64,000 nt of DNA, from positions 64,001-128,000 of the forward strand of contig JBCCHT010000023.1 of assembly GCA_039028615.1 (NCBI GenBank), given 5' to 3'. The translations under genes were made by a program, and so were the position numbers. Origin of the DNA: Myxococcota bacterium (lineage in GTDB: Bacteria > Myxococcota_A > Polyangia > Nannocystales > Nannocystaceae). Every line of letters begins with the position of its first letter. Position 1 is the stretch's first letter. Under the pieces are notes generated by a model, which did no database searches, was not told the DNA's origin, and saw only the letters and a program-made list of their open reading frames with translations. Positions 8,473-64,000 of the stretch are shown piece by piece.

Positions 8473-8882
8473 GATCGTTTCTCTCTATCGACGCGGTCGC
8501 CATCACGGCGCCGCTCGAGAGGACCCGTGCGGCAAAACCCGGTGAACAATTTGTTCCGCGAGAGAAAAAAACGACGGGCCGACTCACGGTCAAAAAATGG
8601 CCATGACGAAACATGATCGACCTTCACGTGTACGAGGAAATCGTTGCGTTGATTGCAACGGCGGACAGGCCGATTGTTCGCGGAAGAACTCGTTCCGGGG
8701 TCACCAACTGTGACCAAAATACTCCACCGCAGAGCGGCCTTCGCCGATATGCATGGGGTCGAATGAAGGAGAAATCTGCGCAAGACGCCCTCGGCAAATT
8801 CGTCGGCCTTCACTCCCCTGCCTTTGCTCACCAACCGAAGCGCCACGGCTGCGGCCACGAGCGCTCGTGCTAGCTTGCCGAG

Positions 8883-9500
8883 GTGGAACGCGAATGTGAA
8901 CTCGTCGACGCCTGGCGGTCGGGCGACGAGCAAGCCGGGGAAGCGCTGGTGGAAGCGTACTTTCCCGCGCTTCATCGCTTCGTTCGCAACAAGATCGACC
9001 ACGGGGTCGAAGACCTCATCCAGTCCACGTTCCTCGCGTGCCTCGAGGGTCGCGATCGCTTCGAAGGGCGCTCGAGCTTCCGCGCCTACCTGTTTGGAAT
9101 CGCGCGTCACCTGCTCTATGAGCGATATCGCAAGAAGGCCACGCACGGGGCTGATTTCGTGGCCGAGCGCAGCTCGGTGGCCGACCTCGAGACCGGGGTG
9201 AGCACGCTGGTCCGCCGCCGCTCCGACGAAGAGCAGCTGTACCGGGCGCTGCGCTGCATCCCGGTGGAGCAGCAGCTCATCCTCGAGCTGTACTTCTGGG
9301 AGTCGATGACCGCGCGCGAGATCGGTGAGGTCCTCGATCAACCCGAGGGCTCCATCCGCACCAAGATCCGACGCGCCCGCCTCCAGCTGCGCGAGCGACT
9401 CGAGGCCGAGGGCAGCGAGACCTTCGACTCGATCCCCGTCGGCGGTGGCATCGAAGCCTGGGCCAACTCGATCCGCGAGCGCTGGAAGCCGCCCGCGTAG
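8883..9500 (+). CDS. ECF sigma factor (paralog 2), directly upstream of a Ser/Thr kinase
   Basis: EDLIQSTFL..FRAYLFGIAR; LELYFWE..PEGSIRTKIRRAR. Confidence 0.9.
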   Translation: MERECELVDAWRSGDEQAGEALVEAYFPALHRFVRNKIDHGVEDLIQSTFLACLEGRDRFEGRSSFRAYLFGIARHLLYERYRKKATHGADFVAERSSVADLETGVSTLVRRRSDEEQLYRALRCIPVEQQLILELYFWESMTAREIGEVLDQPEGSIRTKIRRARLQLRERLEAEGSETFDSIPVGGGIEAWANSIRERWKPPA

Positions 9501-9506
9501 CCGACC

Positions 9507-12500
9507 ATGGACATCGACGAGCCCACCACCGCCCCGCTGTCGACGGAGGCCGAGCACCCGGGCCCCTCGGGGACGCCTCAGGGGCCGAGCGACCTCGATG
9601 CCGAGGCGGTGCGGGCCGCCGTGTTCCGCGATCTGTTTCCACGCCGCTTCGACCGGGTGCTCCTCGGTCGCTACACCCTGCTGCACAAGCTCGGTGAGGG
9701 CGGCATGGGGGTCGTCTACGCCGCGTACGACGACGTGCTCGACCGCAAGGTCGCGGTGAAGTTCATCCACACTCGGCAGGCCCATCGCAGCACGGCCCAG
9801 GCGCGGCTGCTTCGCGAGGCCCGGGCCATGGCTCGCGTATCCCATCCCGCGGTGGTCACGGTCTTCGACGCGGGGCGTACCGACGAGCACGTGTTCATCG
9901 CCATGGAGTTCGTGGAGGGGCGCTCGCTGTCCAAGTGGATGGAGGAGGGGTCTCACCCCTGGCGGGACGCCCTGTCGCTGTTCATCGCGGCCGGTCGCGG
10001 GCTGGCGGCCGCGCACGGAAACGGCGTGGTGCACCGCGACTTCAAGCCGGGCAACGTGCTCATCGATAGCCACGGGCGGGCCAAGGTTGCGGACTTCGGC
10101 CTGGCCGGGCTCGAGGCGGGCGAGCCTCGTCCCATCGAGAGCACCAAAAACAGCGAAGCCGAGTCGGCCCTGACACGAACGGGGGCGGTGATGGGCACGC
10201 CTGCGTATATGGCTCCCGAGCAGTTCGCTGGCGAGGCGGCGACGCCCGCCTCCGACCAGTTTTCGTTCTGTGTCGCGCTATTCGAGGCGCTGTTCGGGGC
10301 CCGCCCCTTCGACGGGCAGAGCCTGCGCGCGCTCGAAGCCAACGTGAAGGCAGGCCGGCTGCTCTCCCCCCTGCCCCCCGCCGAGGTGCCCACGCGGCTG
10401 AAGGACATCGTCATGCGAGGGCTGTCGAGCTCGCCCTCGGAGCGCTTCGAGTCCATGGAGCAGCTCGTCGCCGCCCTCGAGCAGTCTCGCCGTGGTCGCT
10501 GGCAACGACCCTCCACGGTGGGGCTGGCCGGGGTCGGCCTGGGGAGCCTCGCGTTGCTCGGCGGGCTGGCCTTGCAGGAGCCGACGACGAGCCCGTGCTC
10601 GGGTGGCCGTCAGCAACTCGAAGGGGTGTGGGATCCCGAGCAGCGGCAGCGGATGGTCGATGCTCTGTCCGCCGTCGATCGTCCCTACGCCGAGGGCACC
10701 GCCACCGGGGTCGCCGAAGGCCTGAGTACGTACGCCGACGCATGGGTCGCGGGCTTCGAAGATGCCTGCCTGGCCACCCGCGTGCGCGGCGAGAGCTCGG
10801 AGACCCTGCTCGATCGCCGCATGGGCTGCCTCCAGGGCCGACGACGCGAGCTTTCGGCCCTGGTCGACGTCCTCGCCGAGCCCGACCCTCGAGTCCTCCG
10901 CGGAGCGGTCGAGGCCGTCGAGTCGTTGCCCGCGGTGCAGCGCTGCGACGACATCGACTACGTGCTGGCCGAAGTGCCACCGCCGGGCGCCGAGCGGGCC
11001 CCGGCCATCACCGCGGCCGAGGTCGAGATCTCCGAGGTCCGGGCCCGTCGACGGGCCGGCCTCTACGACGCCGCCGCGACCAAGAGCGCGAAGGTGCTCG
11101 AGCAGGCTCGTACCTTGGAGTATCGCCCGCTGGTGGCCGCCGCCCTGGTGGAGCACGCCGCGGTGCTCGAAGGCCAGGGAAACTACGCCGAAGCCCGCGA
11201 GCACTACCAGCGGGCCTACGCGGTCGCCGACGAAGTCGGCGCGGACGAGCACCGCCTCGATGCCGCGCTCGGGGTGGTCACCGTGACCGCGCAGCACCTG
11301 CGGGAGACCGACGCGCTGCAGCCCTGGGACGCCCTGGCCCCGGCCGCGTGGCGCCGGATCGGCGAGCCTCCGTTGCGCGAAGCCGATCTTCGCCTCGCTC
11401 TGGGCACCGGGTCCTATCTGCGGGGGAACCTCGACGATGCGATCGAGCAGCTTCGCCGCGCGCTCGAGGTGGTGATGCGAACTCGCGGCTCGGGCCTGCA
11501 CGCGGCGAGAGTCCGAGGCCAGCTGGGCACCGTGCTCTCCGACAACAGCGAGCGGGAGGCGGCCGAGGTGCAGCTGCGGCAAGCGCTGGACATTCGGCTG
11601 GCCGAGCAGGGCCCCGACCATCCCGACGTCGCCGCGGCCCATCGTGAGCTGGGCACCTTGCTCATGCTCGGAGACGACCCCGCCCCGGCCGCGGCCAGCC
11701 TACGCGAGGCGCTGCGGATCCAGCTCGAAGCTTTGGGGTCCGAGCACCCGGAAGTCGCGATCACCCGCAACCAGCTCGGTCGGGTGCTCCAGCTCCAGGG
11801 CGAACTCGAGGCCGCGCTGTCCGAACTCCGCAAGGCGCAACAGATCGCCGGCCAGAGCCTCGGCGGCGAGCACCTCGTGGTCGGACGGCTCCACAAGGAC
11901 ATGGGCAGCGTGCTCATCGAGATGGGTCGCATCGAGGAGGGCCTCGACGAGCATCGACGCTCCCTCGAGCACATGCGGGCGGCGTTCGGCCCCGAGCATC
12001 GAGCCCCGGTCATCGTGCAGCTCAGCTTCGGGCAAGCCCTCGCTGCGCACGGTCGGCACGCCGAGGCGCTCCAGGAGCTCGGGGAGGCGCGCGACGTGGC
12101 GCGCTCCGGGCTCGGGCCCGACGACATGCTGCTGGGCTTCATCCTGCACGGGATCGGCCGCAGCCACGAAGCCACCGGGCAGCTCCAGCAGGCGGGCGAC
12201 GCCTACCGAGAGGCGCTGCGGGTCCGCCGAGCGGTCGAGCCGAGCGACCCGGCCGCGATCGCGCAGAGCCGAGCCTTCCTTGCGCACACGATGGCTCGTT
12301 CCGGGCGCGGGGAAGAGGCGCTCGAACACGCGGAAGCGGCCATGGCGTACCTCGACGACCCCGACATCGGGCCCATGGCTCGGGTCGCCAAGGCCGAGGC
12401 TCGGCTCGGGATGGGTCGCGAGTCGGACGACGCTCTCGCCGTTCTTCGCGAGGTCCGAGCCGCCACGAAGGACCCCTGGCTACGCGCGCGAATCGACGAG

Positions 12501-51386: not shown

Positions 51387-54203
51387 TCACTCGGCGTCCA
51401 GCGGCACCCCGTGCGCGCGAGCCCACGGTGTCACTCGATCGATGGGGTCGTCCCGCCACGGCACCGTCTTCGACAGCTCCCGAGCGCGACGCAACTGCGC
51501 GATCGCCTGGTCGGGTGCCTCGCCGAGCAACCACATCGCCTTGCCCAGGTCGACTTCGCAGAGCACCCGCTGAACCGGCGCGCCCCCGCTCGCTTCGAGC
51601 ACCTCGATGCAACGACGCGAGGCCTCGACCGCGGCATCGAAACGATCGAGGGCCAGGGACGCGGTCCCGAGGTTGACCAGAATCGGCACGAGCTGAGCGT
51701 GATTGGGGCCGAGCGCAGCCACGAGCGTGTCGTGGGCAGCGTGCAGCTCGTCCACCGCGACCGCAGGCTCTCCCATCTCGAGCAAGGTGCGACCGATGGC
51801 CAAGCGCACCAGCGCGACGTCGGGGTGCTCGGGCCCGAGCGCGGCCAGCTGAATCTCCAATGCTCGCCGAGACGCCGCCAACGACTCGGGGAAGCGCTCG
51901 AGGGCCGACAAGACCAGCGCCAGGTTGCCCAGGCCGTTGCCGACCCGCGGATGCTCGGGACCGAGACTGCGGGTCCAGACCTCCACCGCACGCTCGAACG
52001 GAGCGACCGCGCCCTCGAGATCCCCCATGGACGCCAGCGCCGTGCCGAGCGAGTTGCTGGCCATGGCCACATCGGGATGGGTCGGCGAGCGCGAGCGCCC
52101 GAAGATCTCCAGCGCGGTGCGAGCGTGCTCGGCCGAGCGTTCGAAACGGGCCTCGGCCAGCTCGACGGTCGCCAGGTTGTTGTGCACCAAGCCGACCCGC
52201 GGATGCGATGCACCCAGCACACGACCGTACTGTGCCCGCGCCTGCTCGAGCTGGTCCCGCGCCTCTTCGGTCCGACCGAGTTCACGCAGGGTGGTGGCCA
52301 TGGTCACCCGCAGGGCGCCGATGCGGGCGTCGGCCTCGGGATAGACCCTCAGCGCACGCTGGAGCGCGAGTTCGTGCTGCTGCTGCGCGTCGTCGTAGTG
52401 CCCCCGCGTGAACAGGATGTTGCCGCGGGCCCGATGGAGCTCGGCATGCAGCACATCGGAATCGTCCATCTTGCCCACGACGGGCGTCGCCAGCGTCGCC
52501 CACTCGAGCCCGGCATCGGCGTCGGCGAGCCGATAGCCGAGCAGCTCCGCGAGCAAGACCATGCCGCGCGCTCGCGTCCGCAGGTCGTCCGCGCGCTCGG
52601 CCGCCCCGATCGCCGCGATGAGCTCGGTGCGGGCGCTCTCGAAGTCGGCTTCATCGAGCAGCGCGATGGCCCGGGCTTCGTGCAGGCGCGCGCTCAGCCG
52701 TGCATCGGGCTCGAAGCCGTCGGCCGGCTCTCGTTCGAGCACGGTCAACGCTTCCGCGGGCCGCCCCGCGGCCGACAGCGCCCGTGCGCGATAGATCTGC
52801 TGCTGGAGCGCCTCCGTCTGCGGGCTCGAAGTCTCGGACGCCGACGACGAGGTCTCGTCTCGACACGAACTCGCGGGCGCCAGCTGCTGCACGGCCAACG
52901 TGGCCCGAGACGCGGCATCGGGCAACGACTCGGCCAGGACATCGAGCTGTACGCCGAGCGCCTCCAGCCGCTGGTCGAGGCACGTCAGGCGACTTTGGAG
53001 CGCGGCGCTGGACTGAACGCCATCGACATGGGTGGCGCGACAGGCATCGTCCAGCTCGGCCGTCCAGGCCTGACCGTAGCCTTCGAGCGCCCGGGTGGTG
53101 GCCTCGAGGACTTCGTCCGCACGCGCGGGAGCATCGGAGCGCAAGCGAGCCTCGAGCCCTTCGCTCCGCGCCGTGGTCCAGGTCTCGTCCCAGTGGCGCT
53201 GGCGAGCCCGGCAAGCCTCGAGCGGCGAGTCGCTCGACCCGAGCCACCATGTGCCTCCCGCCAGCGCCAGCGTGGCGAACCCGAGCCCGAGCCATCGACC
53301 ATGTCGCGACGGTCGCAGAGCCTGGGCGATCGCCTCGAGCAGCGCATCCATCGATTCGAAGCGAGCCTCGCGGTCGCGCGCCAAACCGCGGCGCAGCGCG
53401 GCATCGAGTGCCGTCGGCCACGGCGAGGACGAGGTCGCGGCGCCCTCGGTGCCCGGCCGATGCCCGTGCAAGGCCTCGTAGAGCGCGACACAGTACGCGT
53501 ACTGATCCGAGCGCGGATCGGCGTCCCCTTCCCATTGCTCCGGCGACATATAGGCGGGAGTCCCGAGCACGGCTGGCCCTTCGGTCGAAGCCTCCGCGGC
53601 GAGCCCCGCCAACCCAAAGTCGGCCACCAACACCCGTCCGTCGTCACCGAGGAGCACATTGCCCGGCTTGAAGTCGCGGTGGATCAACCCGCTGCGATGC
53701 GCCGCGGCCAAGCCATGGCCCGCGGCCACGAACACCTCCACGACCTCCCGCCACGGCCGTTGCTCATCCAGCCAATGCCGAAGGTCCACGCCCTCCACCA
53801 GCTCCATGACCAGGTAGCCCTGGCCCTCGAACTCGCCGAACTCGTGCACCGTCACCACGTTGGGATGCGTGAGCCGAGCCATCGCCCGCGCCTCGCGACG
53901 AATCCGTCGGCGCCTCGGCTCCTCGTCGGGCCCCGCCCCCCAGCGCAGCAGCTTCAGTGCGACCTGGCGATCGAGCTCGGGGTCGTGCGCGCGATAGACC
54001 TCGCCCATCGCCCCCTGGCCGATGCGCTCGTGAACGGTGAAGCGCCCGAGGGTCTGCGAGGGTCGCTCATGGCCGAACATCCGGTGCTGGAGCTCGGCGT
54101 GGATCCGAGCGGCCTCGAGCCCCTGGCCCTGCCGCAGCTGTGCGATCCCTTCTCGCACTCGGCTGCCATCCGCCGCGGCCGTCGAAACACTCCCCGATGG
54201 CAT
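51387..54203 (-). CDS. Ser/Thr kinase - TM - Cys domain - TPR repeats
   Basis: GQGAMG, VALK, HRDFKPGN, DFG, GTPAYMSPE; GPEHP TPR repeats; start 54203 inferred. Confidence 0.92.
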   Translation of the reverse strand: MPSGSVSTAAADGSRVREGIAQLRQGQGLEAARIHAELQHRMFGHERPSQTLGRFTVHERIGQGAMGEVYRAHDPELDRQVALKLLRWGAGPDEEPRRRRIRREARAMARLTHPNVVTVHEFGEFEGQGYLVMELVEGVDLRHWLDEQRPWREVVEVFVAAGHGLAAAHRSGLIHRDFKPGNVLLGDDGRVLVADFGLAGLAAEASTEGPAVLGTPAYMSPEQWEGDADPRSDQYAYCVALYEALHGHRPGTEGAATSSSPWPTALDAALRRGLARDREARFESMDALLEAIAQALRPSRHGRWLGLGFATLALAGGTWWLGSSDSPLEACRARQRHWDETWTTARSEGLEARLRSDAPARADEVLEATTRALEGYGQAWTAELDDACRATHVDGVQSSAALQSRLTCLDQRLEALGVQLDVLAESLPDAASRATLAVQQLAPASSCRDETSSSASETSSPQTEALQQQIYRARALSAAGRPAEALTVLEREPADGFEPDARLSARLHEARAIALLDEADFESARTELIAAIGAAERADDLRTRARGMVLLAELLGYRLADADAGLEWATLATPVVGKMDDSDVLHAELHRARGNILFTRGHYDDAQQQHELALQRALRVYPEADARIGALRVTMATTLRELGRTEEARDQLEQARAQYGRVLGASHPRVGLVHNNLATVELAEARFERSAEHARTALEIFGRSRSPTHPDVAMASNSLGTALASMGDLEGAVAPFERAVEVWTRSLGPEHPRVGNGLGNLALVLSALERFPESLAASRRALEIQLAALGPEHPDVALVRLAIGRTLLEMGEPAVAVDELHAAHDTLVAALGPNHAQLVPILVNLGTASLALDRFDAAVEASRRCIEVLEASGGAPVQRVLCEVDLGKAMWLLGEAPDQAIAQLRRARELSKTVPWRDDPIDRVTPWARAHGVPLDAE

Positions 54204-54316
54204 CGCAAAGACCAGTGTAGCGGGGTCACGGCTCGCCCGGCGCCGCTTCGACCAAACCGTCGATCCGCGCCACCAGCCAACGTTCGCGGTTCCGTGCTCG
54301 GGCTCGTCGGGGGCGC

Positions 54317-55282
54317 TCAGACCTCGAAGAGCCGCATGGCCATGGAGACCATTTGATCGATGTCTTCGCGGCCTTGGACCTCCAGGCCGAACTGCTGAAG
54401 CATCGGCGCCATGTTCCGACGCACCATCGCCACCTCGGTCGGTGTGGTGTCGTAGCCTTCGAATGGCCCGCTCAACGCCTGCGCCGACGCCCGCTGGGTG
54501 GCTGCGACGACGTAGTTCCGAATCGCCGCCATCTTGTCGTAGTCGAGCCGGTCCGGGGTGTCGGTGGGCATGTGGTAGTGCTCCCAGCGAGCGCACGTGA
54601 GAAACAAGTAGGGCCGCTGGTCGAGCCGAAATGCATGGTAGTCGCTGAGATCACCGATGTAGCGGGTCAACAGCGGCACCGCACGAACGCCTCGGACTTC
54701 TGCTCCCGCCTCGATCACGGGCTCGAGCCCCGGGTCGCTCTCCATACCCGTCACGAACAACAGGTCGCCACATCCGGGGATCGGGACCTCATGGCCGCAC
54801 AGGTCGAGCACGATGGCGCAGTGCACCGGCCCTTTTCGCTGAGCGCGATAGAAGTACGTCGACCCCATGTTCGGGGTCAGGAAGCGCGGTGGCTCCTCGC
54901 CGTCGAAGAACGCGAACACCACGTCACGCTCGAGCCGAGCCGAGCGCAGCGGCTTCACCGAGGACAACGAGATCGCGATGGCAGCGGCGTTGTCATCGGC
55001 GCCCGGCTGCCGGCCACACGTGTCGTAGTGCGCCGCCAGCAGCATCGGAGGCAGGCTGGGGTCACGACCGGGGAGTCGACCCAGCACGTTCACCTGCCCC
55101 GAGTTTCGCGGGCCGTAGGGCCATTCGAACGCGTCCCCATAGGGCTGCAACCCGAGCCTCTGCATCCGCTCGAGCAACCATGCCCGGGCCGCCCGATGCC
55201 CCTTGCTCCCCACGACCCGCTCACCCGGCTCGGTCAGCGCTTCGACATCCGCCCGTAGGGTTTCGAGCAGCTCGTACGACAT
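54317..55282 (-). CDS. M28 family metallopeptidase
   Basis: AHYD, GADDNAA, FDGEE, SDY..F, YHMPTD. Confidence 0.88.
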   Translation of the reverse strand: MSYELLETLRADVEALTEPGERVVGSKGHRAARAWLLERMQRLGLQPYGDAFEWPYGPRNSGQVNVLGRLPGRDPSLPPMLLAAHYDTCGRQPGADDNAAAIAISLSSVKPLRSARLERDVVFAFFDGEEPPRFLTPNMGSTYFYRAQRKGPVHCAIVLDLCGHEVPIPGCGDLLFVTGMESDPGLEPVIEAGAEVRGVRAVPLLTRYIGDLSDYHAFRLDQRPYLFLTCARWEHYHMPTDTPDRLDYDKMAAIRNYVVAATQRASAQALSGPFEGYDTTPTEVAMVRRNMAPMLQQFGLEVQGREDIDQMVSMAMRLFEV

Positions 55283-55317: not shown

Positions 55318-56916
55318 CTACTGCACGCCGGCCGACGGGATCCGCGGGAGCTCGAACGCGAAGTCCCAGGCGTCGCCACCCGTCGTCCACCCGAGCACCA
55401 TCGGCGCGGCGTTGGGATCGGAGAAGTGCCCGTCGATCGAGCTGGCCGGCTGCGCCCCGTTGCCGTCGGCCCCTGGCCATACGACCTCGTTGTAGAAGCA
55501 GCTCTCGGCCACCGCGTGGGTGCTGAAGGGCACACCACCGCCCGGGCCCGAAGCCGTGCCCACGCTGAAGCTGGAGACGATGGCCGGCGGCGTGTCCCAG
55601 TCGGGATAGGCGGAAAACGCCCCGGCGACGGGTCCGACGGCAGGAGCATCGTGGGTGCCTTCGGCGTGACCCGAGGCATAACAACGCTCCACGATCTGAT
55701 CGCCCAGCGCGTTCGGCAGCGGATCGAAGTGCGCGACGAGTCCCCCAGCAACGCCCGCATGGACGTCGCCCGTGGCGTAGCAATCGTGAATCGTATAGGC
55801 GGTCAGGCCCTCGCTGCCTCCCGTGAGGCCCCCGCCCACGGAGACCGACCAGGGAAAGCGCGGCACCGCGGTGACCTGCCCCGTCGCGTAGGACCACTCG
55901 AGGGTGCCCGAACCGACGGAGCCCACGAGCCCACCCGCGAGATCCTGCGCGGTCACGTCTCCGGTGGCAAAGCAGTGATCGACGTTGCCGCCCTGCGCCG
56001 CACCGACCAGGCCACCGCCCACCCGATGGCCATCACCGAGCACATCGCCGTGGGCCTCGCAGTGCCGCAGCTGCCCAGTCAGGGCCCCGACCAAGCCGCC
56101 GATGAAGATGACGCTATGCTCGATCTCCGGGTTGAGCTGGACGTCCCCCCGCGAGGTCGCATTCTCCACGAGGCCGCCATACACCCGCCCCGCGAGCCCT
56201 CCGGTGTGGCTTCCGCCCGAGACCAAGACCCCGACCTGAGCCCCATCCACCGTGGACTGCCGCAGCTCTCCGGCCAGGCCTCCGACCTCCTGCAGACCGG
56301 TCACCGATCCGAGCTCGACCCCGACGTCGATCAGCGTGACGTCCTGGCCGTAGCCGATCATCGCCCCGACCCACCCCGACTCGGGCCGATCGACGGAGAC
56401 CTGCACGAGCGTGAGACTCTCGATGTGCGCCCCCTCGGCCCAACCGAAGAGCCCGTAGGCGAAGGGCACGAGGTCTTGCTCGAGCCGGAGCCCGATGATG
56501 TCGAAGCCCTGCCCGTCGTACGAACCGCTGAAGGGGACCTCTTGAGTGCCGATGACAAACTCGCCGCTGCCGTATTCGTACTGCGGCCACAAGTCGATGT
56601 CGTTGCACTGCACGAAGTGGCTCGCCCACGAGGCGGGGTGTGCCGCGAGATCGGCCAGCTGGTGGTGGCTGTAGATCTCGAAGGGCGAGTCGACGGTGCC
56701 CGCCCCGACCGCATCGTGGGCCACGGGGCTGACCTGGCCCGTACACGGGGTGCCGCCCCCTTCCTCGCCACCGCCCCTCGACCCCTCGACCGCATCGATC
56801 CCGGACCGGAACTCCGCGGGCGAATCGGAATCGCAGCCGCTCGATGCCACGAAACCAGGGAGCGCACACGATAGAGTGAGGACGACGAAGCGAGGCTGCA
56901 CGCCGGGTATTGACAC
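55318..56916 (-). CDS. Secreted/lipoprotein with GLUG-type beta-helical repeats
   Basis: FSGSYDGQGFDI, GLFG, repeated VGGLVG and CYATGDV units; SSGC lipobox-like. Confidence 0.8.
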   Translation of the reverse strand: MSIPGVQPRFVVLTLSCALPGFVASSGCDSDSPAEFRSGIDAVEGSRGGGEEGGGTPCTGQVSPVAHDAVGAGTVDSPFEIYSHHQLADLAAHPASWASHFVQCNDIDLWPQYEYGSGEFVIGTQEVPFSGSYDGQGFDIIGLRLEQDLVPFAYGLFGWAEGAHIESLTLVQVSVDRPESGWVGAMIGYGQDVTLIDVGVELGSVTGLQEVGGLAGELRQSTVDGAQVGVLVSGGSHTGGLAGRVYGGLVENATSRGDVQLNPEIEHSVIFIGGLVGALTGQLRHCEAHGDVLGDGHRVGGGLVGAAQGGNVDHCFATGDVTAQDLAGGLVGSVGSGTLEWSYATGQVTAVPRFPWSVSVGGGLTGGSEGLTAYTIHDCYATGDVHAGVAGGLVAHFDPLPNALGDQIVERCYASGHAEGTHDAPAVGPVAGAFSAYPDWDTPPAIVSSFSVGTASGPGGGVPFSTHAVAESCFYNEVVWPGADGNGAQPASSIDGHFSDPNAAPMVLGWTTGGDAWDFAFELPRIPSAGVQ

Positions 56917-57106: not shown

Positions 57107-58783
57107 ATGGCTTTTCGACTCCCCTGGACCCTCCCCCTCGCGGCGTGTGCCGCGGCCCTTGCCCACCTCGCGCAGCCCTCGGTCGCGCACGCCTGCGGCG
57201 GTACCTTCTGCGACGCGGGTCCACAAGCGATGCCCGTCGATCAGACGGGCGAGAACATCCTGTTCGTGGTCGGGCCGGAGTCGGTCGAAGCCCACGTCCA
57301 GATCCAGTACCAGGGCAATCCCGAGCAGTTCGCGTGGGTCGTGCCCGTGATGGCGGTGCCCGAGGTCGAGATCGGCTCCGACCCGCTGTTCGACAACCTG
57401 CTCACCGCCACCGTGCCCACGTTCATCTTGGACACCCAGCGGGAGGACAACTGCAACGACAACTCGGGCGGTGGGTTCGGCTGTGCGGCGGTCGCAGATC
57501 TGGCCTTGTCCTCCGACAGCGAAGGCATCGGGGAAGACCATGACAACTCGCCGACGGTCCTCGTGCAAGACACGGTGGGCGCGTTCGAATACGCGGTGCT
57601 CGAAGGCGGCACGGTCGAGGGCGTGACGCAGTGGCTCGACGAAAACGGCTACGCGCAGGACGACGAGGCGCCCGCCATCCTCGGCGAGTACCTCGACGAG
57701 GGCTTCTCGTTCGTCGCGTTCAAGCTGGTGGCGGGCGCGGGCGTCGACGAGATCCACCCCGTCATCCTGCGAACGCCCGGCGGTGAGCCCTGCGTGCCGC
57801 TGCGGCTCACTCGCATCGCGGCCAAGGAAGACATGGGCATCCGTACCTTCTTCCTGGGTGACGGCCGGGTCGTGCCCACCAACTACAGCCATGTCGAGAT
57901 CAACCCGCTCCACATCGACTGGCTCATCCCCGGCTCCAACTACGAAGAGGTGGTCACGCGCGCCGTCGATGAGCCCGGTGCCAGTGGCCGGGCGTTCGTG
58001 ACCGAGTACGCCGGGACATCGCAGACCGTCTCGCCCGACGGGATCCACTCCGAGCGGTGGAACTCGGCCCCCTTTTCGGAGATCGGGCCGAACCAGCTGA
58101 GCCGGGTGCTTCAAGACCAAGGCTTTTTGGACTGCACCTTCGAGTGCGGCTTCACCCACCCGCTGATCCAAGGGTTGCTCGAGACCTACCTGCCCGTGCC
58201 GCCCAACGTGGACCCGGTGGAGTTTTATATGTGCACCGAGTGCTTCAGCGACTTCATCGACGAGGAGCGCTGGGAGCCCAGCGAGTTCGCGGCGGCGCTC
58301 GAGGAGCGAGTGATCGGTCCGGCCGAGCACGCCCTCGACTTGCTCGAGCTGCCCTACCTGACGCGGATGTACACCACGATGTCGCCGCACGAGATGACCG
58401 TCGATCCGCTCTTCCATACCCGCGCCGACTTGCCCGAGGTCTCCAACCAGTTCTCGGCCACGCGCATCATCGACTGCGAGGGGCCCGACTCCATCATCCT
58501 CGAGGACGGGCGAGAGATCGTGTTCGATGAGCTCGACCGCCAGCCGGACTTCGAGGACATGCCTTACTCGGCGGTCATCGAGCGGATCCCCGAGCAGGGC
58601 GCCCCCATCCTCACCGTGGACTCCCGCGACGCCATCAACGACGCGCTCGAGGACTGGAACGACGACCACCGCGTGGCCGACGGCTGCAACTGCCGCGTCA
58701 CTCGCCACACCTTCGAGGGCGGCAGCACGATGATGCTGATGGTGTTGCTCGGGCTCCGCGCCCGCCGACGCCGACGCGACTGA
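57107..58783 (+). CDS. DUF2330-like exported protein with MYXO-CTERM-like tail
   Basis: AHA-CGGTFC, FAWVVPV, WLDENGY, FVAFKL, PLRLT, FVTEYAG; GCNC..hydrophobic helix..RRRRR. Confidence 0.82.
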   Translation: MAFRLPWTLPLAACAAALAHLAQPSVAHACGGTFCDAGPQAMPVDQTGENILFVVGPESVEAHVQIQYQGNPEQFAWVVPVMAVPEVEIGSDPLFDNLLTATVPTFILDTQREDNCNDNSGGGFGCAAVADLALSSDSEGIGEDHDNSPTVLVQDTVGAFEYAVLEGGTVEGVTQWLDENGYAQDDEAPAILGEYLDEGFSFVAFKLVAGAGVDEIHPVILRTPGGEPCVPLRLTRIAAKEDMGIRTFFLGDGRVVPTNYSHVEINPLHIDWLIPGSNYEEVVTRAVDEPGASGRAFVTEYAGTSQTVSPDGIHSERWNSAPFSEIGPNQLSRVLQDQGFLDCTFECGFTHPLIQGLLETYLPVPPNVDPVEFYMCTECFSDFIDEERWEPSEFAAALEERVIGPAEHALDLLELPYLTRMYTTMSPHEMTVDPLFHTRADLPEVSNQFSATRIIDCEGPDSIILEDGREIVFDELDRQPDFEDMPYSAVIERIPEQGAPILTVDSRDAINDALEDWNDDHRVADGCNCRVTRHTFEGGSTMMLMVLLGLRARRRRRD

Positions 58784-58909: not shown

Positions 58910-61900
58910 ATGCTGAAGGGCCTCGTTCACGCCGCGTTCGGTGCGTGGTTGTTCATGGCGGGGGCCAGTGTCGCCGACGCGCGGACGACGACGGCCCCGA
59001 CCAACGAAGAGATCGAGGACGCGGTCGAGCACGCCGCGCTCGCGCTGGGAAACTACGAGAACAACGACTGGGAGGCAGCGGCCGAGCACGGTCAGGCCGC
59101 CCTCGAGGTGCTCGGCCCCCGCTTCGGATGGGACGAGCCGAAGGTGGTCCAGCCCGTACTCGCGCTGACCATCGACTCGCTGATGAAGCTGGGGCGCAAC
59201 GCCGAAGCGGATGTCTTGATCGCCAAGCTCAAAGCGACCCAAGCCGCGAAGCCGAAGCCCACGCCCGAGCCGTCGTCCGCTCCTGCCCCCGAACCCGAGC
59301 CCAAGGAGAGCGCGCTGGACCAGGCCAACCGACTCGCGACCGAGGCCTTCCTCGCGTTCGTGCAGGGTCGCAACGACGAGGCGCGGGACAAGGGCCAGCG
59401 AGCGGTGACCGAGCTGGAGTCGCTCGACCCCGATGCGAAGTCGTTGCCGCAGATGCGAAGCCTGCTGGCGATCCTGTACGAGCGGCGCCTCGAGTACGGG
59501 AAAGCGGAAGCCCTGCTCGAGGCCAACCTCGCCAAGGCGCACGCCTCGGGGGACACGGTCGCGCAGGCACGGTGGACCGACGCCCTGGCTCGCACCGCGC
59601 TGAAGCAGGGCAAGGCCGACGAGGCCGAAGATGGCTTCGGGCGCGCGCTCGAGCTCGGACGAGAGGCGGACGATCTCGCGTCGCAGGCCGACGCGGTGGG
59701 AGGCCTGGGCGACGTGGCCTCGTTCCGGGAGCAGAGCACCCAGGCGATCGCCGAATACCGCCGCGCGCTGGCGATGCACGAGCGACGCCGGGACTTCGGC
59801 GCCTCGCATCTCGTCTCCCCGCTGCACGACCTGGGTGTCGCGCTGGAGCTGGCCGGTCAGTTCGAGGAGTCGGAGGCCGTCCTGACCCGGGCGCAGGCCA
59901 TCGCGACGCGGAGCTTCGGCGCCGACACGCCCGCGACCTGGAGCACCGCGATGTCGCTCGGGCGCCTGTATCGCTCCAAGGGGGATCACGATCGCGCGGT
60001 GAAGCTGTTCGAGGACACGCTGACCGCCCAGGAGGCCAAGCTTCCTCCCACGTCGCCCGGCATCGCCGCGTCGCTCAATCACCTCGCCGAGACCATGTGG
60101 GCCCGAGGCGATGCCCCGCCGCGGATCGTGGGGCTGGCCACGCGAGCGGCCGAGATTCACGAGCGCGAGATGACGACGGTGCTGCGCTCGGGCACCGAGG
60201 GCCAGAAGCGAGCCTACCTGGAGCGCTACCAGTCGGGCACGGACCGGATCATCTCGTATGCGGTCCGCGACGCGAGCACCGACCCGGGCGCGGTGCGGCT
60301 GGGGGCGACGACGGTGATCCGCCGCAAGGGTCGGCTGCTCGACGCGGTGAGCGATCAGTTCGCGCTGCTGCGTTCGCGGGCGGACGACGACACCCGGGCC
60401 AAGCTCGATCGCCTCGCCGAGGTGCAAGCCCAGATCTCCGCGCTGGCGCTGCGCGGCCCCGACGAGAACCTCGATGCCGCGGCCCATACCGAGCTATCGA
60501 ATCAGCTCCGCGCCGAGCTCGAGCAGCTCGATGACGCGCTCGCCGATGTCGTGCCGCCGGATGAGCGCTCTACGGTGCAGCTGGAGGACGTCGCCCGGCG
60601 GCTCGGCTCCGACGAGGCCCTGGTGGAGTTCGTGCTCTACCGGCCCTTCGACGTGCAGTACAAGAGCATGCTCACCGCCTTCGGCACGGAGCACTATGCC
60701 GCCTTCGTGGTGCATGGCGACGGGAGCACGGCCGTCGTCGACCTCGGTGAAGCGGCGCGCATCGACGAAGCGGTCGTGGCCTACCGCCGAGCGCTGGCCG
60801 ACCCCCGCACCGAGCCCGAGCGCATCGGTCGACAGCTCCACGGTTGGTTGATGGCCAAGATCGAGCCCGCGCTGGGGGGTAAGACGACGGTCTACGTCTC
60901 CCCCGACGGCATGCTCAACCTGCTGCCCTTGGCCGCGCTGGTCGACGCCGATCGCCGCTACCTCGTCGAGCGCTATCAGTTCACCTACCTCAGCAGCGGG
61001 CGGGACCTGCTGCGCCTGGCTCGCTCGGAACTCCCCCGCGAAGGGCCCCTGCTGGTCGGCTCCCCCGAATTTTCCCACGCGGGCGGCACGACGAGCACGG
61101 GCACTCGATCCGTCGGGCTCGCCGATCTGATCTTCCCGCCCTTGCCCGGTACCGCGGCCGAGCTCGACGCGCTGGCCAAGGTCCTGCCCAACGCTTCTGT
61201 ACGGCGCGAAGACGAAGCCACGGAGTCGGCGATCAAGCAGGCGCAGGGGCCCCTGGTCCTACACATCGCCACGCATGGGTTCTTCCTCGCCGACGAGCGG
61301 GCGGGCACCGAGGGCACGCGCGGGGTCACCTACGTCAAGGGTGACTTCGTACCGCCCTCGAAGGCCGAAAACCCGCTGATCCGCTCCGGCCTCGCGCTCG
61401 CGGGCGCCAACCTCCGCACCGGTCCCGATGGCCAAGACGGCATCCTCACCGCGCTCGAGCTGGCGTCGACCGACCTGCACGGGACCGAGCTGGTGGTGCT
61501 CTCCGCCTGCGAGACCGGGGTGGGCGAGGTTCGCAACGGCGACGGCGTCTACGGCCTGCGACGCGCCTTGGTGATCGCGGGCAGCCGCAGCCAGATCATG
61601 TCCCTGTGGCAGGTCGACGACGAGGCCACGCGCGATCTGATGACCAAGTTCTACCGCCGCCTCGATCGCGGCAAGGGCCGCTCGGAGGCGCTGCGGTCCG
61701 TCCAGCGCAAGATGCTGCGCAACAAAGCCACCGCGCATCCCTTCTACTGGGCCGCGTTCATCCCCAGCGGTGACCCGGGCTCGATGAAGCTGAAGGCCCC
61801 CAAGCCCCAGCCCCCGCGGCCGGGCAAGGTCGGCGGCTCGGGGGAGCTTCGCGACTACTGGAGCGACCGCTTCGACGAGCCGATGATGCTCTTCGGGGGC

Positions 61901-62428
61901 AGCTACATCGGTGTCGTCGGCACCCCGCGCCTGGCCGACGACCCCGCCGATCACATCCGCGGCTGGGACTTTCGGATCCGCGGCTTCACCCGCCCCCACG
62001 TGCAGTTCGGCTTCGACTTCAACCGCCAGGTGTGGCGGGCCCCCTCCAGCCCCCGGCAGACGAACCTCAACGTCAACCGCATGGAGTTCGTGTTCGGCGT
62101 CGACGTGCTGCCCCTGCCCTACGACTGGCGGGTGCGACCGGCGTTGGTGCCCTACGCGGGCCTCGGCCTGGCGTGGGGCAAGGTCCGCGACACCGCCCCC
62201 GACTCCTTCTCCCGCAGCGACGACCTCGTGGGCGGAGCCGGGGCGACCTTCGGCAGCGACTTGATCCTCTTCATCCGCCTCGGCGACCGCTTCCTGGTCG
62301 GCCTGCGCGGAGGCATCAGCAAGCCACTGTACCGACTCCGTGCGGGCGGCGAGCGCTTGGACTTCGACGACGAATTTCCCCGAGCCCTGCGCTGGCAGGT
62401 GGGGCTCGACTTTGGAGCAACCCCATGA
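58910..62428 (+). CDS. Exported TPR-CHAT (caspase-like) protease with C-terminal predicted outer-membrane beta-barrel
   Basis: Signal peptide (..VADA); TPRs; SPDGMLNLLP, HIATHGFF, VLSACETG, SLWQVDD, HPFYWAAF; Pro linker; eight amphipathic strands ending WQVGLDF. Confidence 0.88.
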   Translation: MLKGLVHAAFGAWLFMAGASVADARTTTAPTNEEIEDAVEHAALALGNYENNDWEAAAEHGQAALEVLGPRFGWDEPKVVQPVLALTIDSLMKLGRNAEADVLIAKLKATQAAKPKPTPEPSSAPAPEPEPKESALDQANRLATEAFLAFVQGRNDEARDKGQRAVTELESLDPDAKSLPQMRSLLAILYERRLEYGKAEALLEANLAKAHASGDTVAQARWTDALARTALKQGKADEAEDGFGRALELGREADDLASQADAVGGLGDVASFREQSTQAIAEYRRALAMHERRRDFGASHLVSPLHDLGVALELAGQFEESEAVLTRAQAIATRSFGADTPATWSTAMSLGRLYRSKGDHDRAVKLFEDTLTAQEAKLPPTSPGIAASLNHLAETMWARGDAPPRIVGLATRAAEIHEREMTTVLRSGTEGQKRAYLERYQSGTDRIISYAVRDASTDPGAVRLGATTVIRRKGRLLDAVSDQFALLRSRADDDTRAKLDRLAEVQAQISALALRGPDENLDAAAHTELSNQLRAELEQLDDALADVVPPDERSTVQLEDVARRLGSDEALVEFVLYRPFDVQYKSMLTAFGTEHYAAFVVHGDGSTAVVDLGEAARIDEAVVAYRRALADPRTEPERIGRQLHGWLMAKIEPALGGKTTVYVSPDGMLNLLPLAALVDADRRYLVERYQFTYLSSGRDLLRLARSELPREGPLLVGSPEFSHAGGTTSTGTRSVGLADLIFPPLPGTAAELDALAKVLPNASVRREDEATESAIKQAQGPLVLHIATHGFFLADERAGTEGTRGVTYVKGDFVPPSKAENPLIRSGLALAGANLRTGPDGQDGILTALELASTDLHGTELVVLSACETGVGEVRNGDGVYGLRRALVIAGSRSQIMSLWQVDDEATRDLMTKFYRRLDRGKGRSEALRSVQRKMLRNKATAHPFYWAAFIPSGDPGSMKLKAPKPQPPRPGKVGGSGELRDYWSDRFDEPMMLFGGSYIGVVGTPRLADDPADHIRGWDFRIRGFTRPHVQFGFDFNRQVWRAPSSPRQTNLNVNRMEFVFGVDVLPLPYDWRVRPALVPYAGLGLAWGKVRDTAPDSFSRSDDLVGGAGATFGSDLILFIRLGDRFLVGLRGGISKPLYRLRAGGERLDFDDEFPRALRWQVGLDFGATP

Positions 62429-63447
62429 CGCGACTTCTCTGCATCGCATGCGCGGCCCTGCTGCTGACCGCGTGCAAGACCACCGACGAGCCCCACGCGC
62501 CCAGCAACGACGTGACCTGCCCCGATGGCACGCTCCGCCCCCAGATCGACTGCCGCCAGGACGTCGGGCTCAAGGGCAAGGTCGTCGACGCCAACGCTTC
62601 GCTGGGCAATATCGGCCTCGGCTTGGGTGCATCGTACGAAGAGGGCGCGGTCGGAGAGGTGACCGACTCGACCTATCAGCTCGCGCTCCAGCTCGAGTCG
62701 CTGTGCAAGGACTACAACGCCTGCGTGATGGATCCGTCCGGGTATCAGGCGGCGTCGTCGGAGATCCGCCGCCAGCTCTCCGATCACGTGCGCTTGGTGG
62801 GTCGACTCGAGGGCACGGGGAGCTCGGCCGAGACCGGTGACGCGGTCTGGGCCAACGCACGGCCCGACCTCGCGTCGCAGCGAATCGCAGTGGACTACCG
62901 CATCGAAGCCGCCAAGGGCGGCACCTCGCAGACGATCATCCACCGCAGCGGCGATCGCCTCACCGCGGGGGACGGCTTCCGCGTGGTGCTGCGACCTTCA
63001 ACCACCGCCCACGTCTATGTGCTGCTGCTGTCGAGCCAAGGCGATGCGACCGTGCTCTATCCCGATCCCACCATGGGCATGCCCAACCCGATGAACGCGG
63101 GCACGGAGGTCGCCATCCCGCCCGACGGTTGGTTCGTGCTCGATGCGGCGCCCGGCACCGAGACGGTGCAGGTGCTGGTCTCCAAGACCCCGCTCACCGA
63201 CCTCGAGACGCGGCTGGCCGAGCTTCGCAGCGGCAAGAAGCAGGAGCCCAAGGGCGTGCTCGAGCGAGTGGGCACGCTGCTGTGTCCGCCCAAGGGCAAG
63301 CGAGGGGTGAAGTACACGAAGACGTCTGCGAGCTGCGATGGTCAGACGCACCGAGGGGTCGTCTACAAGAAGACCAAGCAGCCGCGGATCGCCGCCGTGC
63401 CCGGAGACGACCTGGTGGTGCTCCAGCATGTCGTCGAGCACGGCTAG
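62425..63447 (+). CDS. Lipoprotein with C-terminal DUF4384-like domain
   Basis: LTAC lipobox; GDGFRV..HVYVL..G..TVLYP..IP..F.LD..PGTETV; ATGA coupling to the CHAT gene. Confidence 0.8.
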   Translation: MTRLLCIACAALLLTACKTTDEPHAPSNDVTCPDGTLRPQIDCRQDVGLKGKVVDANASLGNIGLGLGASYEEGAVGEVTDSTYQLALQLESLCKDYNACVMDPSGYQAASSEIRRQLSDHVRLVGRLEGTGSSAETGDAVWANARPDLASQRIAVDYRIEAAKGGTSQTIIHRSGDRLTAGDGFRVVLRPSTTAHVYVLLLSSQGDATVLYPDPTMGMPNPMNAGTEVAIPPDGWFVLDAAPGTETVQVLVSKTPLTDLETRLAELRSGKKQEPKGVLERVGTLLCPPKGKRGVKYTKTSASCDGQTHRGVVYKKTKQPRIAAVPGDDLVVLQHVVEHG

Positions 63448-63947
63448 CCTGGCCAGATGTAGCCGCCGTCCGAGCTGCTGTACCCGTCGTTCCGCCACGG
63501 GTTGTCCCCCGCGCGATACGACGCGGCCATCCAGATGACGCCGAGTACGGGCAGCAGCCACACCGCGGCGAGTTGCTTGCCGCGATCGGTGGCGTCGAGG
63601 CATCGCTCGCGGAGGATCCGGGCGGTCACCACCACGTTGCCGAGCACGTGCACCACCAAGGTCAGCCCGCCGAAGACGGACGGGAACTGCTCGGGGGTCC
63701 ACTGCAGCACCCACAGACCGGCGGCGAAACAGGCGAGGCCGATGCCCCAGCGGGTGCGGCCGGCCTCCCCCGGCATGCACAGACGAACGCCACCGAGGGC
63801 AATGGCGAGGACGGCCGCGGCCCACAGCACCACGCTCACCGCCTGTCCTGCTTCGGTCTCGAGCCCCCACTGCAAGCCCGCGCCGAGACTGAACACCAGG
63901 ACACTGACCAAACCCAGTGCCACGCTGGCCAGCCCGAATGCACGCAT
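63444..63947 (-). CDS. Hypothetical membrane protein
   Basis: About five hydrophobic helices; VWLLPVLG; ATG 63947 (TTG 63977 is an alternative). Confidence 0.6.
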   Translation of the reverse strand: MRAFGLASVALGLVSVLVFSLGAGLQWGLETEAGQAVSVVLWAAAVLAIALGGVRLCMPGEAGRTRWGIGLACFAAGLWVLQWTPEQFPSVFGGLTLVVHVLGNVVVTARILRERCLDATDRGKQLAAVWLLPVLGVIWMAASYRAGDNPWRNDGYSSSDGGYIWPG

Positions 63948-64000
63948 GAGGTCGCGGTAGTAGTTTCGCCGGTTCAACTCGTTGGGCTACCCGGCGTACG

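Follow-up and report, generated by a model that had tools for sequence, protein, structure and literature searches.

In this study, we analysed a pair of adjacent genes in a stretch of 64,000 nucleotides (the window) from a bacterium of the Nannocystaceae (Myxococcota; assembly GCA_039028615.1, contig JBCCHT010000023.1, positions 64,001 to 128,000). The first, gene A, encodes a TPR-CHAT protein that is predicted from its sequence to be a clan CD cysteine protease with the dyad His789/Cys867, and the second, gene B, encodes a lipoprotein with a DUF4384 domain. A short motif that begins with Arg-Gly occurs once in the protease and twice in the lipoprotein and, judged by comparison of homologous pairs, it co-evolves in the enzyme and its partner.

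A sequence-only reading of the window had drawn attention to the three copies RGVTYVK, RGVKYTK and RGVVYKK and to the segments ATHGFF, SACETG and GTRSVG, and translation places all of them at the positions given below. That reading had also described translational coupling of the two genes and a pair of Cys residues around the first lipoprotein copy. Both are present in the sequence: the gene A stop and the gene B start share ATGA, and Cys287 and Cys304 flank the copy. Segments called disordered are those in which the AlphaFold2 (AF2) model has a predicted local distance difference test (pLDDT) score below 50. The features, with open reading frame abbreviated as ORF, are as follows.

58910..62428, + strand: gene A, TPR-CHAT protein of 1172 residues (ORF, translation, Pfam, AF2 model)
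58910..58984, + strand: putative Sec signal peptide, gene A residues ~1-25 (hydrophobic N-terminus, then an Ala-x-Ala-like site, by inspection; orthologue N-termini are similar)
58997..60544, + strand: TPR/helical-repeat region, residues ~30-545 (Pfam TPR_12, TPR_10 and others; all-helical in the AF2 model)
60821..61774, + strand: CHAT domain, residues 638-955 (Pfam PF12770, E 7.4e-88)
61100..61117, + strand: GTRSVG loop, residues 731-736 (R733 at least 90% conserved; loop 721-746 with pLDDT below 50)
61274-61276, + strand: predicted catalytic His789 (ATHGFF from residue 787; invariant in 16/16 orthologues)
61319..61339, + strand: RGVTYVK, residues 804-810, in the His-Cys insert (R804 invariant; insert 789-843 with pLDDT below 50)
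61508-61510, + strand: predicted catalytic Cys867 (SACETG from residue 865; invariant in 16/16 orthologues)
61832..62425, + strand: C-terminal 8-stranded beta domain, residues ~975-1172 (AF2 strands, atlas feature matches)
62425..63447, + strand: gene B, DUF4384 lipoprotein of 340 residues (ORF, translation, Pfam; ATGA overlap with the gene A stop)
62566..62874, + strand: N-terminal helical domain, gene B residues ~48-150 (AF2 model)
62962..63192, + strand: DUF4384 core, residues 180-256 (Pfam PF14326, E 2.6e-9; Ig-like/macroglobulin-like beta sandwich)
63235..63366, + strand: disordered loop, residues 271-314 (pLDDT below 50), with Cys287, motif copy 1, Cys304 and motif copy 2
63301-63321, + strand: motif copy 1, RGVKYTK, from residue 293, flanked by Cys287 and Cys304
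63352-63372, + strand: motif copy 2, RGVVYKK, from residue 310 (read from the sequence)
63412..63441, + strand: last beta strand, residues 330-339 (AF2), which closes the DUF4384 sandwich after the motif loop

The lipoprotein was found in 27 of 73 genomes of the order (E<=1e-5), and 20 loci were taken with ~6 kb per side; further pairs came from one metagenome scan and one genome-collection scan. Pairs with a long CHAT protein that are readable on both sides number 25 (the 20 of the permutation set below plus L112, L153, L155, L224 and L238), and in all 25 both proteins carry a motif of the same class, Arg-Gly/Ala-hydrophobic-x-hydrophobic. The protease copy lies in an insert of 30-50 residues, ~15 residues past the catalytic His, and the one to three lipoprotein copies lie in a disordered loop flanked by Cys residues. 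The residues that follow the Arg vary among lineages and agree inside each pair:

Clade I: protease R-G-V-x-Y-x-K; lipoprotein, the same pattern
Clade II: protease R-A-L-E-Y-D-A-G; lipoprotein R-G-L-E-Y-D-A-G, twice
L224: protease R-G-L-E-L; lipoprotein R-G-L-E-L
L153: protease R-G-L-D-L; lipoprotein R-G-L-E-L
L155: protease R-G-F-N-I-T-x-E; lipoprotein R-G-L-T-V-T-x-E and a second similar copy
L238: protease R-G-I-I-L-E-D-E; lipoprotein R-G-V-I-L-E-D-E

The agreement extends to the sub-clades of clade I, and at L067 a T-Y-N variant is present in both proteins. Over 20 pairs, identities at the six positions after Arg-Gly number 80 against a permuted mean of 51, with 0 of 20,000 permutations reaching 80, and in clade I alone (14 pairs) they number 50 against 43.9, with 45 of 20,000 permutations reaching 50; since the sequences are kin, both figures overstate independence. 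The fairest test of the set takes one representative from each of six lineages and gives 22 identities out of 42 against a mean of 10.7, a value that 2 of 720 permutations reach, although here too the lineages are few and related. The sequence-only reading had proposed co-variation in homologous pairs as a test of its idea, and on this six-lineage comparison the outcome is positive.

The resemblance within one genome is less telling than the comparison with relatives. Genes A and B of the window share 17 pairs of 7-mers with at least five of seven residues in common, against 11.0 +/- 4.6 after shuffling B, and one A 7-mer that matches two separate B 7-mers arises in 6.7% of 300 shuffles, so that the single-genome coincidence is not significant by itself. 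Comparison with relatives indicates that the likeness is real and beyond chance. R804 is invariant in all 16 aligned CHAT orthologues; C287, R293, Y297 and C304 are invariant in all 20 aligned lipoproteins, in which G294, R310, G311 and Y314 are at least 90% conserved. Both motif-bearing segments are predicted to be disordered, as expected of sites that a protease can reach. Recent gene conversion was considered as the cause of the likeness and rejected, because the DNA of the three window copies is identical at 14-16 of 21 positions and the flanks are unrelated. We also considered the GTRSVG loop, which the sequence-only reading had listed as a second loop of interest, as a further shared site. 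It stands as a conserved, Arg-bearing, disordered loop of the protease, but it has no counterpart in the lipoprotein.

Natural variation among the related loci bears on how the motif and the protease are connected. Among the 20 loci, a long CHAT gene adjoins the lipoprotein gene in 16, a short CHAT gene in two and a neighbour with the barrel only in one, and the remaining locus lies at a contig end. Loci of the closer clade (51-78% identity) have the CHAT gene first and the lipoprotein gene second, and of the 11 in which both starts are readable, 7 keep the ATGA overlap; in the distant clade (26-29% identity), the genes are adjacent and divergent. The barrel-only neighbour belongs to genus g15 (G035: L075, 4340-5722 (-); G038: L222), in which a protein of 461-516 residues has kept the C-terminal barrel and lost CHAT. 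Its N-terminal 250 residues have no Pfam match, and a search of the rest of the g15 genomes with the CHAT region of gene A gave nothing at E<=1e-10. In the g15 lipoprotein, both copies are without Arg-Gly while DUF4384 is intact (E 6.3e-11). Loss of CHAT accompanied by motif decay represents a single evolutionary event here, yet it ties the motif to the protease and not to the DUF4384 fold. A further variant is seen at L119 (1003-2622 (+)), where a CHAT protein of 895 residues stands beside a truncated lipoprotein gene whose tail lies beyond the contig end. Its loop reads Arg-Arg-Ser-Phe-Glu-Leu-Glu, and the protein ends in a hydrophobic stretch and an Arg-rich tail, with no barrel.

All-against-all clustering of the ORFs from 24 loci returned the gene A and gene B families and antisense shadow ORFs and nothing else, and the five neighbours in the window have zero homologues across 27 related loci. 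Since no conserved third gene emerges from the clustering, the unit is two genes. The pair makes up a module complete in itself that occurs in Nannocystaceae and other Polyangia; the related loci belong to Nannocystaceae (Myxococcota), L083 being Paraliomyxa miuraensis.

Gene A scores 295.2 bits against the CHAT profile (PF12770, cut-off 24), and its matches to Pfam TPR families cover residues ~165-400. In the AF2 model (mean pLDDT 78.7), helical repeats span residues 30-545 and the CHAT fold ~565-955, with disordered loops at 721-746, 789-843 and 868-879. His789 and Cys867 directly follow strands 783-788 and 861-866, the arrangement of a clan CD dyad. D843, E850, E868, D903 and D904 are the invariant acidic residues of the protease alignment and candidates for binding the Arg. 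In separase, the Arg-binding Asp may belong to an LW-x-V-x-D region that resembles residues 899-904 of gene A. His-Cys spacing is 77-96 in the long CHAT type and 46 in the short type. The host genome has 25 CHAT matches, and a regular expression found the dyad in 11 of these 25 paralogues; among the 11, the long insert and the motif occur together in gene A only. Nine of the other ten have a spacing of 37-48 and the tenth, which is without the motif, has 70. From these spacings, the motif sits in a lineage-specific insert. The top Foldseek matches of the model are Csx29/Craspase (8eey_B, E 1.5e-11), separase and DdvA (8rot_A, E 6.4e-10). A sequence search of the PDB with the CHAT alignment returned TPR proteins only, and the same search with residues 780-960 alone gave a best E of 0.28.

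The C-terminal domain of gene A is modelled as eight long strands (992-1170; block pLDDT mostly 80-94) and has atlas feature matches of 0.91-0.93 to OMP_b-brl-type clusters, which serve as a lead only. A Pfam search with the C-terminal 213 residues, at E up to 10, gave zero matches. The domain is kept in clade I, clade II and L224. Many barrel proteins end in Phe, and so do the proteases of clade II and L224, but not the one encoded in the window. Based on the model, the domain is probably an outer-membrane barrel that anchors the protease. This predicted barrel strengthens the envelope location that the sequence-only reading had proposed from export signals, which we likewise assign by inspection.

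Gene B carries the lipobox LLTAC (L-T-A-C at residues 14-17, by inspection), whose Cys17 is invariant in 20/20 lipoproteins, as in a lipoprotein signal, and it scores 37.5 bits against DUF4384 (PF14326, cut-off 27); NCBIfam gave no match. Its AF2 model (mean pLDDT 68) has helices at 48-150, sandwich strands at 155-253, disorder at 271-314 and a strand at 330-339. Structure comparison with VIA-align matched the sandwich to generic Ig-like/macroglobulin-like sandwiches (Z 7-9; alignments spanning 153-340) and the N-terminal domain to generic helical bundles only, and Foldseek with the gene B model returned nothing at E<=1e-3. Such generic matches do not by themselves point to a function. In the model, the chain rejoins the sandwich with its last strand beyond the motif loop, and cleavage within that loop would thus nick the domain and not remove it.

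The observed architecture, conservation, co-variation, loop disorder and adjacency are consistent with a reading in which the motif is a substrate-like element recognised by the protease cleft, acting within the protease itself as a latch or a site of autoprocessing, in the manner of C11 peptidases, and in trans as a target on the partner. We give this reading about an even chance of being correct. Gene A would be exported by Sec and held at the outer membrane by its barrel, with the TPR-CHAT part in the periplasm, and its partner would present a helical domain, the DUF4384 sandwich and a flexible loop that is probably bridged by a disulfide. An Arg-(Gly/Ala)-hydrophobic-x-(Tyr/Leu/Ile)-x-x element would be bound by the substrate cleft. 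The protease copy, 15 residues past the catalytic His, would hold the enzyme in a latent state, either as a pseudosubstrate latch or as a site of autoprocessing. The one to three copies in the lipoprotein loop would serve as targets in trans, with the cut most likely falling after the invariant Arg. Since cis and trans copies would have to fit the same cleft, they would be expected to drift together. The sequence-only reading had added that a disulfide might tether the cut fragment and that the new N-terminus might act as an activating strand; both are possible, the two invariant Cys residues being the one point in their favour.

The closest parallel for the protease copy comes from C11 peptidases. 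PmC11 autoprocesses at Lys147, which lies 14 residues past His133 and before Cys179; the cut is required for activation, and the uncut loop blocks the active site, while clostripain excises a nonapeptide at Arg181/Arg190, according to the available text of that study (PMC4850288). The order His133/Lys147/Cys179 of PmC11 is matched by His789/Arg804/Cys867 of gene A, with a basic residue in the post-His loop before the Cys. Gene A has no Pfam match to Peptidase_C11, and the likeness lies in the position of the candidate site alone. The same text, as far as it is available, describes no partner protein that shares the processing site for PmC11 or clostripain (PMC4850288).

A number of observations weigh against a motif that is recognised and cut in the cleft. 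The conserved and co-varying positions are the Arg and its prime side, and ahead of the Arg the protease and the lipoprotein have different residues. As P1 and the non-prime side usually dominate recognition by clan CD enzymes, conservation on the prime side suits a docking strand as well as a scissile site. Two residues before Cys867 stands Ser865 and not an acidic residue, whereas C11 peptidases have the S1 Asp there (Asp177 in PmC11). At six loci (L068, L069, L101, L223, L227 and L229), the partner is a short CHAT, a lipobox protein of 855-969 residues with a His-Cys spacing of 46, without insert or motif, and yet the lipoprotein motifs are intact; at L068, it is encoded just downstream of the lipoprotein. 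In two of these genomes, no insert-bearing orthologue was found elsewhere at E<=1e-20. The pairing of insert-less CHATs with motif-bearing lipoproteins implies that the cis copy is dispensable and that the partner's copies do not need that of the protease. Lipoprotein homologues with intact motifs and no CHAT on the available DNA account for 15 of 23 loci, mostly on short contigs, and at L106, no CHAT lies within 5 kb among the four ORFs scanned with Pfam. Clade II alone (six pairs) gives no within-clade signal, with 30 identities against a permuted mean of 30.7 that all permutations reach, and with so few and such closely related lineages, the permutation figures suggest more independence than there is. 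A cut at R|G is a proposal drawn from a pattern in the sequences. A prediction of the complex from alignments of CHAT residues 400-960 and lipoprotein residues 150-340 gave 0.03 and 0.14 against a mark of 0.32 and counts neither way.

The sequence-only reading had described the motif as a cleavage or docking site. The co-variation and the post-His position, which resembles that of C11 autoprocessing sites, agree with that description, but conservation on the prime side fits docking equally and does not choose between the two. A non-catalytic docking strand is the alternative that survives best, and we regard it as possible, though clearly less probable than recognition in the cleft. The motif would add as a strand to a groove outside the active site, on the TPR superhelix or the edge of the CHAT sheet, and the protease copy would fill the groove until lipoprotein copies displaced it, giving a tether or an allosteric switch with no cut at R|G. 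Conservation and co-variation fall on the Arg and the next 5-7 residues in a strand-like alternating pattern, tandem copies end at the C-terminus in some distant homologues, like terminal docking peptides, and separase has docking motifs distinct from its cleavage site, according to the accessible portion of one report (PMC10317155). It is also established that TPR domains bind peptides. However, an invariant Arg followed by a small residue looks like the scissile P1-P1' of an Arg-specific clan CD enzyme, the protease copy is at the position of C11 autoprocessing in the available account (PMC4850288), and no groove was identified.

The wider lipoprotein family raises a second alternative. A profile of the full-length lipoprotein matches 7413 cluster representatives at E<=1e-3, of which 1616 reach E<=1e-10, and the motif was tallied in the best 150 representatives, of which 119 have at least 280 residues. 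In the last 130 residues, 100 of these 119 have at least one copy and 62 have at least two. The tail consensus is a Cys followed by (Arg/Lys)-(Thr/Ser)-Arg-Gly-Leu-x-Leu-(Glu/Asp), and the motif's regular expression, itself derived from the motif, occurs 1.08 times per 100 residues in the tails against 0.12 elsewhere, nine times as often. An Arg-Gly-hydrophobic motif between the core and the last strand is therefore common in the 119 full-length representatives, and several DUF4384 proteins of the phylum carry it with no CHAT within ~7 kb. Both would be expected if the receptor were the DUF4384 sandwich, with the loop copies of the lipoprotein bound in cis to the domain that carries them and the protease loop imitating them in order to dock on DUF4384. 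We consider this unlikely. The motif decayed in g15, where the CHAT part was lost and DUF4384 stayed intact, short CHATs without the motif still adjoin the lipoprotein, and AF2 leaves the loop unpacked from the sandwich, with pLDDT below 50.

It is more improbable still that the two proteins do not act on each other through the motif and that a third factor reads it in each of them, for example a housekeeping protease of the periplasm or an enzyme of sorting or modification. Nothing speaks for it directly, apart from the motif-bearing lipoprotein homologues with no CHAT on the available DNA, and the lineage-specific matching within pairs would require the factor to co-vary too; moreover, no third gene is conserved beside the pair. 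A functionless resemblance due to chance or composition, for which the unremarkable counts in the window alone could be cited (17 7-mer pairs; 6.7% of shuffles), can be set aside as highly improbable in view of the invariance of the motif residues across orthologues, the matching across six lineages and the ninefold frequency in tails.

Among known systems, the pair is of the same kind as Craspase, by analogy, in that a CHAT protease has its target, here a candidate one, encoded next to it. The likeness covers the TPR-CHAT fold and the protease gene beside the target gene. According to the available portion of a preprint (10.1101/2022.08.17.504292), the site at which Csx29 cleaves Csx30 is a hairpin in the C-terminal beta domain of Csx30, and in some Csx30 proteins this domain belongs to DUF4384. 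In contrast, Craspase is cytoplasmic, is activated by RNA through Cas7-11 and has Met or Leu at P1, whereas both proteins of the pair carry export signals, by inspection, and the Arg is conserved; neither association with Cas7-11/gRAMP nor a cytoplasmic location applies here. Gene A also differs in its own copy of the motif and its predicted membrane barrel end, and no gene of CRISPR (clustered regularly interspaced short palindromic repeats) systems was found among the neighbours checked around the pair. General Pfam and NCBIfam scans of gene B gave no match to the Csx30 N-terminal domain, the part that binds RpoE/Csx31; no direct comparison with Csx30 was made. New here are the exported location, the probable outer-membrane barrel anchor, the DUF4384 lipoprotein partner and the co-evolving motif in enzyme and partner.

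Separase offers a second comparison. As far as the accessible texts go, it has Arg at the cleavage site, also cleaves itself, and is inhibited by securin and by loops that act as pseudosubstrates; the cut falls after the Arg (PMC10317155; PMC11506125). Like gene A, it joins helical repeats to a CHAT-like protease, and its autocleavage in an insert and its inhibition by substrate mimics in cis and trans are described in the part of the report available (PMC10317155). Separase differs in being eukaryotic and nuclear and in having its motif, (S/D/E)xExxR, on the non-prime side. Securin escapes cleavage by having no P1 Arg, whereas the Arg of the gene A/B motif is invariant in all copies.

DdvA of Myxococcus xanthus is, like gene A, a myxobacterial periplasmic TPR-CHAT protein. 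Its self-cleavage in a flexible segment is proposed and not shown, with trigger and cut site unknown, in the available text (PMC11506125). DdvA has an N-terminal transmembrane helix, a cytoplasmic sigma-binding domain and a His862-Cys907 spacing of 45 without insert, according to the same partial source (PMC11506125), and it has neither the DUF4384 partner nor the barrel of gene A. In gene A, only a signal-peptide-like helix of ~25 residues precedes the TPR region, which sets it apart from DdvA-type anti-sigma proteins, where a cytoplasmic zinc-binding anti-sigma domain and one transmembrane helix come before the TPR-CHAT part, and no extracytoplasmic function (ECF) sigma gene was seen among the neighbours checked around the pair.

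DUF4384 is a recurrent companion of caspase-like domains, for example as an accessory domain of orthocaspases, in the portions of the literature available to us (PMC7475262; preprint 10.1101/2022.08.17.504292). In orthocaspases and CHAT fusions, DUF4384 is fused to the protease and the accessible descriptions mention no shared motif; in the present pair it belongs to a lipoprotein of its own, and the motif of that lipoprotein co-varies with the protease copy. The available parts of the reports on Csx30 DUF4384 and on orthocaspases likewise describe no motif shared by protease and DUF4384 (10.1101/2022.08.17.504292; PMC7475262).

More tentatively, the pair could be the best-resolved case of a widespread and so far undescribed class of periplasmic 'caspase and bait' modules, in which the co-evolving motif would be both zymogen latch and cleavage site of the DUF4384 partner. 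The exposed, disulfide-held loop of the partner and the latch would be in competition, and the protease would thereby be turned on by its substrate. After the cut, the lipoprotein would be nicked but still assembled, ready to come apart or to signal. We consider this fuller picture doubtful as a whole. Were it true, bacteria would gain a proteolytic route for envelope signals. Already on the simpler reading, a definite role would emerge for DUF4384, that of bearing a loop which a protease recognises. Substrates of CHAT-type proteases are named in the portions of the literature available only for CRISPR-linked Csx29 (Csx30) and separase. For the present pair, the sequences nominate the partner, the site, which has an invariant Arg, and a loop for self-regulation, so that specificity and activation of a large group of exported caspase-like proteases become testable with a few point mutants.

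Beyond the pairs, DUF4384 was found in 96 of 301 genomes sampled from the phylum. A CHAT gene lies within ~7 kb of 2 of 40 DUF4384 loci of the phylum by our own hidden Markov model (HMM), which may miss divergent CHATs, and both of these share the motif. CHAT adjacency as a general trait of DUF4384 was accordingly rejected, and the pairing is a property of this lipoprotein family; other DUF4384 loci adjoin kinases, a caspase-domain protein, FGE-sulfatase or WD40 proteins. At L186, a family member with one Arg-Gly-Val copy is encoded ~1 kb from a membrane-anchored Peptidase_C14 protein, which has no motif copy, with an FGE-sulfatase gene between them (genes 8542-10329 (-) and 6633-7601 (+)). 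Members from metagenome contigs (L106, L107, L108, L115 and L118) and P0052, P0055 and P0082 have two or three extra tandem Arg-Gly-x-hydrophobic(3)-Glu units after the last strand, and the final copy in such distant homologues ends exactly at the C-terminus. A short DUF4384 subfamily (family f10: L230-L237, L239 and L240) has a tail with four Cys (D-R-R-L-C-E-Q-L-x-L-P-C ... C) and no Arg-Gly motif, and our HMM found no CHAT near its loci.

The host assembly comprises 12.3 Mb in 94 contigs at ~70% G+C, and gene B is its one DUF4384 match. PADLOC returned TPR models as the sole matches on the pair. Around the pair lie genes for DUF2330, GLUG and M28 proteins, for a protein that reads as a kinase and for a small membrane protein. 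The M28 peptidase (54320-55264 (-)), the GLUG-motif lipoprotein-like protein (55318-56916 (-)) and a long Ser/Thr-kinase-like protein with TPR-like repeats (51387-54596 (-), from ORF reading) are not beside the module in relatives. Convergent with gene B, and overlapping it by a few bases at the stops, is a gene for a predicted multi-pass membrane protein of 177 residues (63444-63977 (-)) with no Pfam match and no conserved adjacency to the pair. Adjacency is likewise not conserved for the gene upstream of the pair (57107-58783 (+)), which encodes an exported DUF2330 protein of 558 residues (Pfam E 3e-27). Its C-terminus runs from a Cys-containing stretch through a hydrophobic helix to an Arg-rich tail, which by inspection resembles what we take to be a MYXO-CTERM-type sorting signal.

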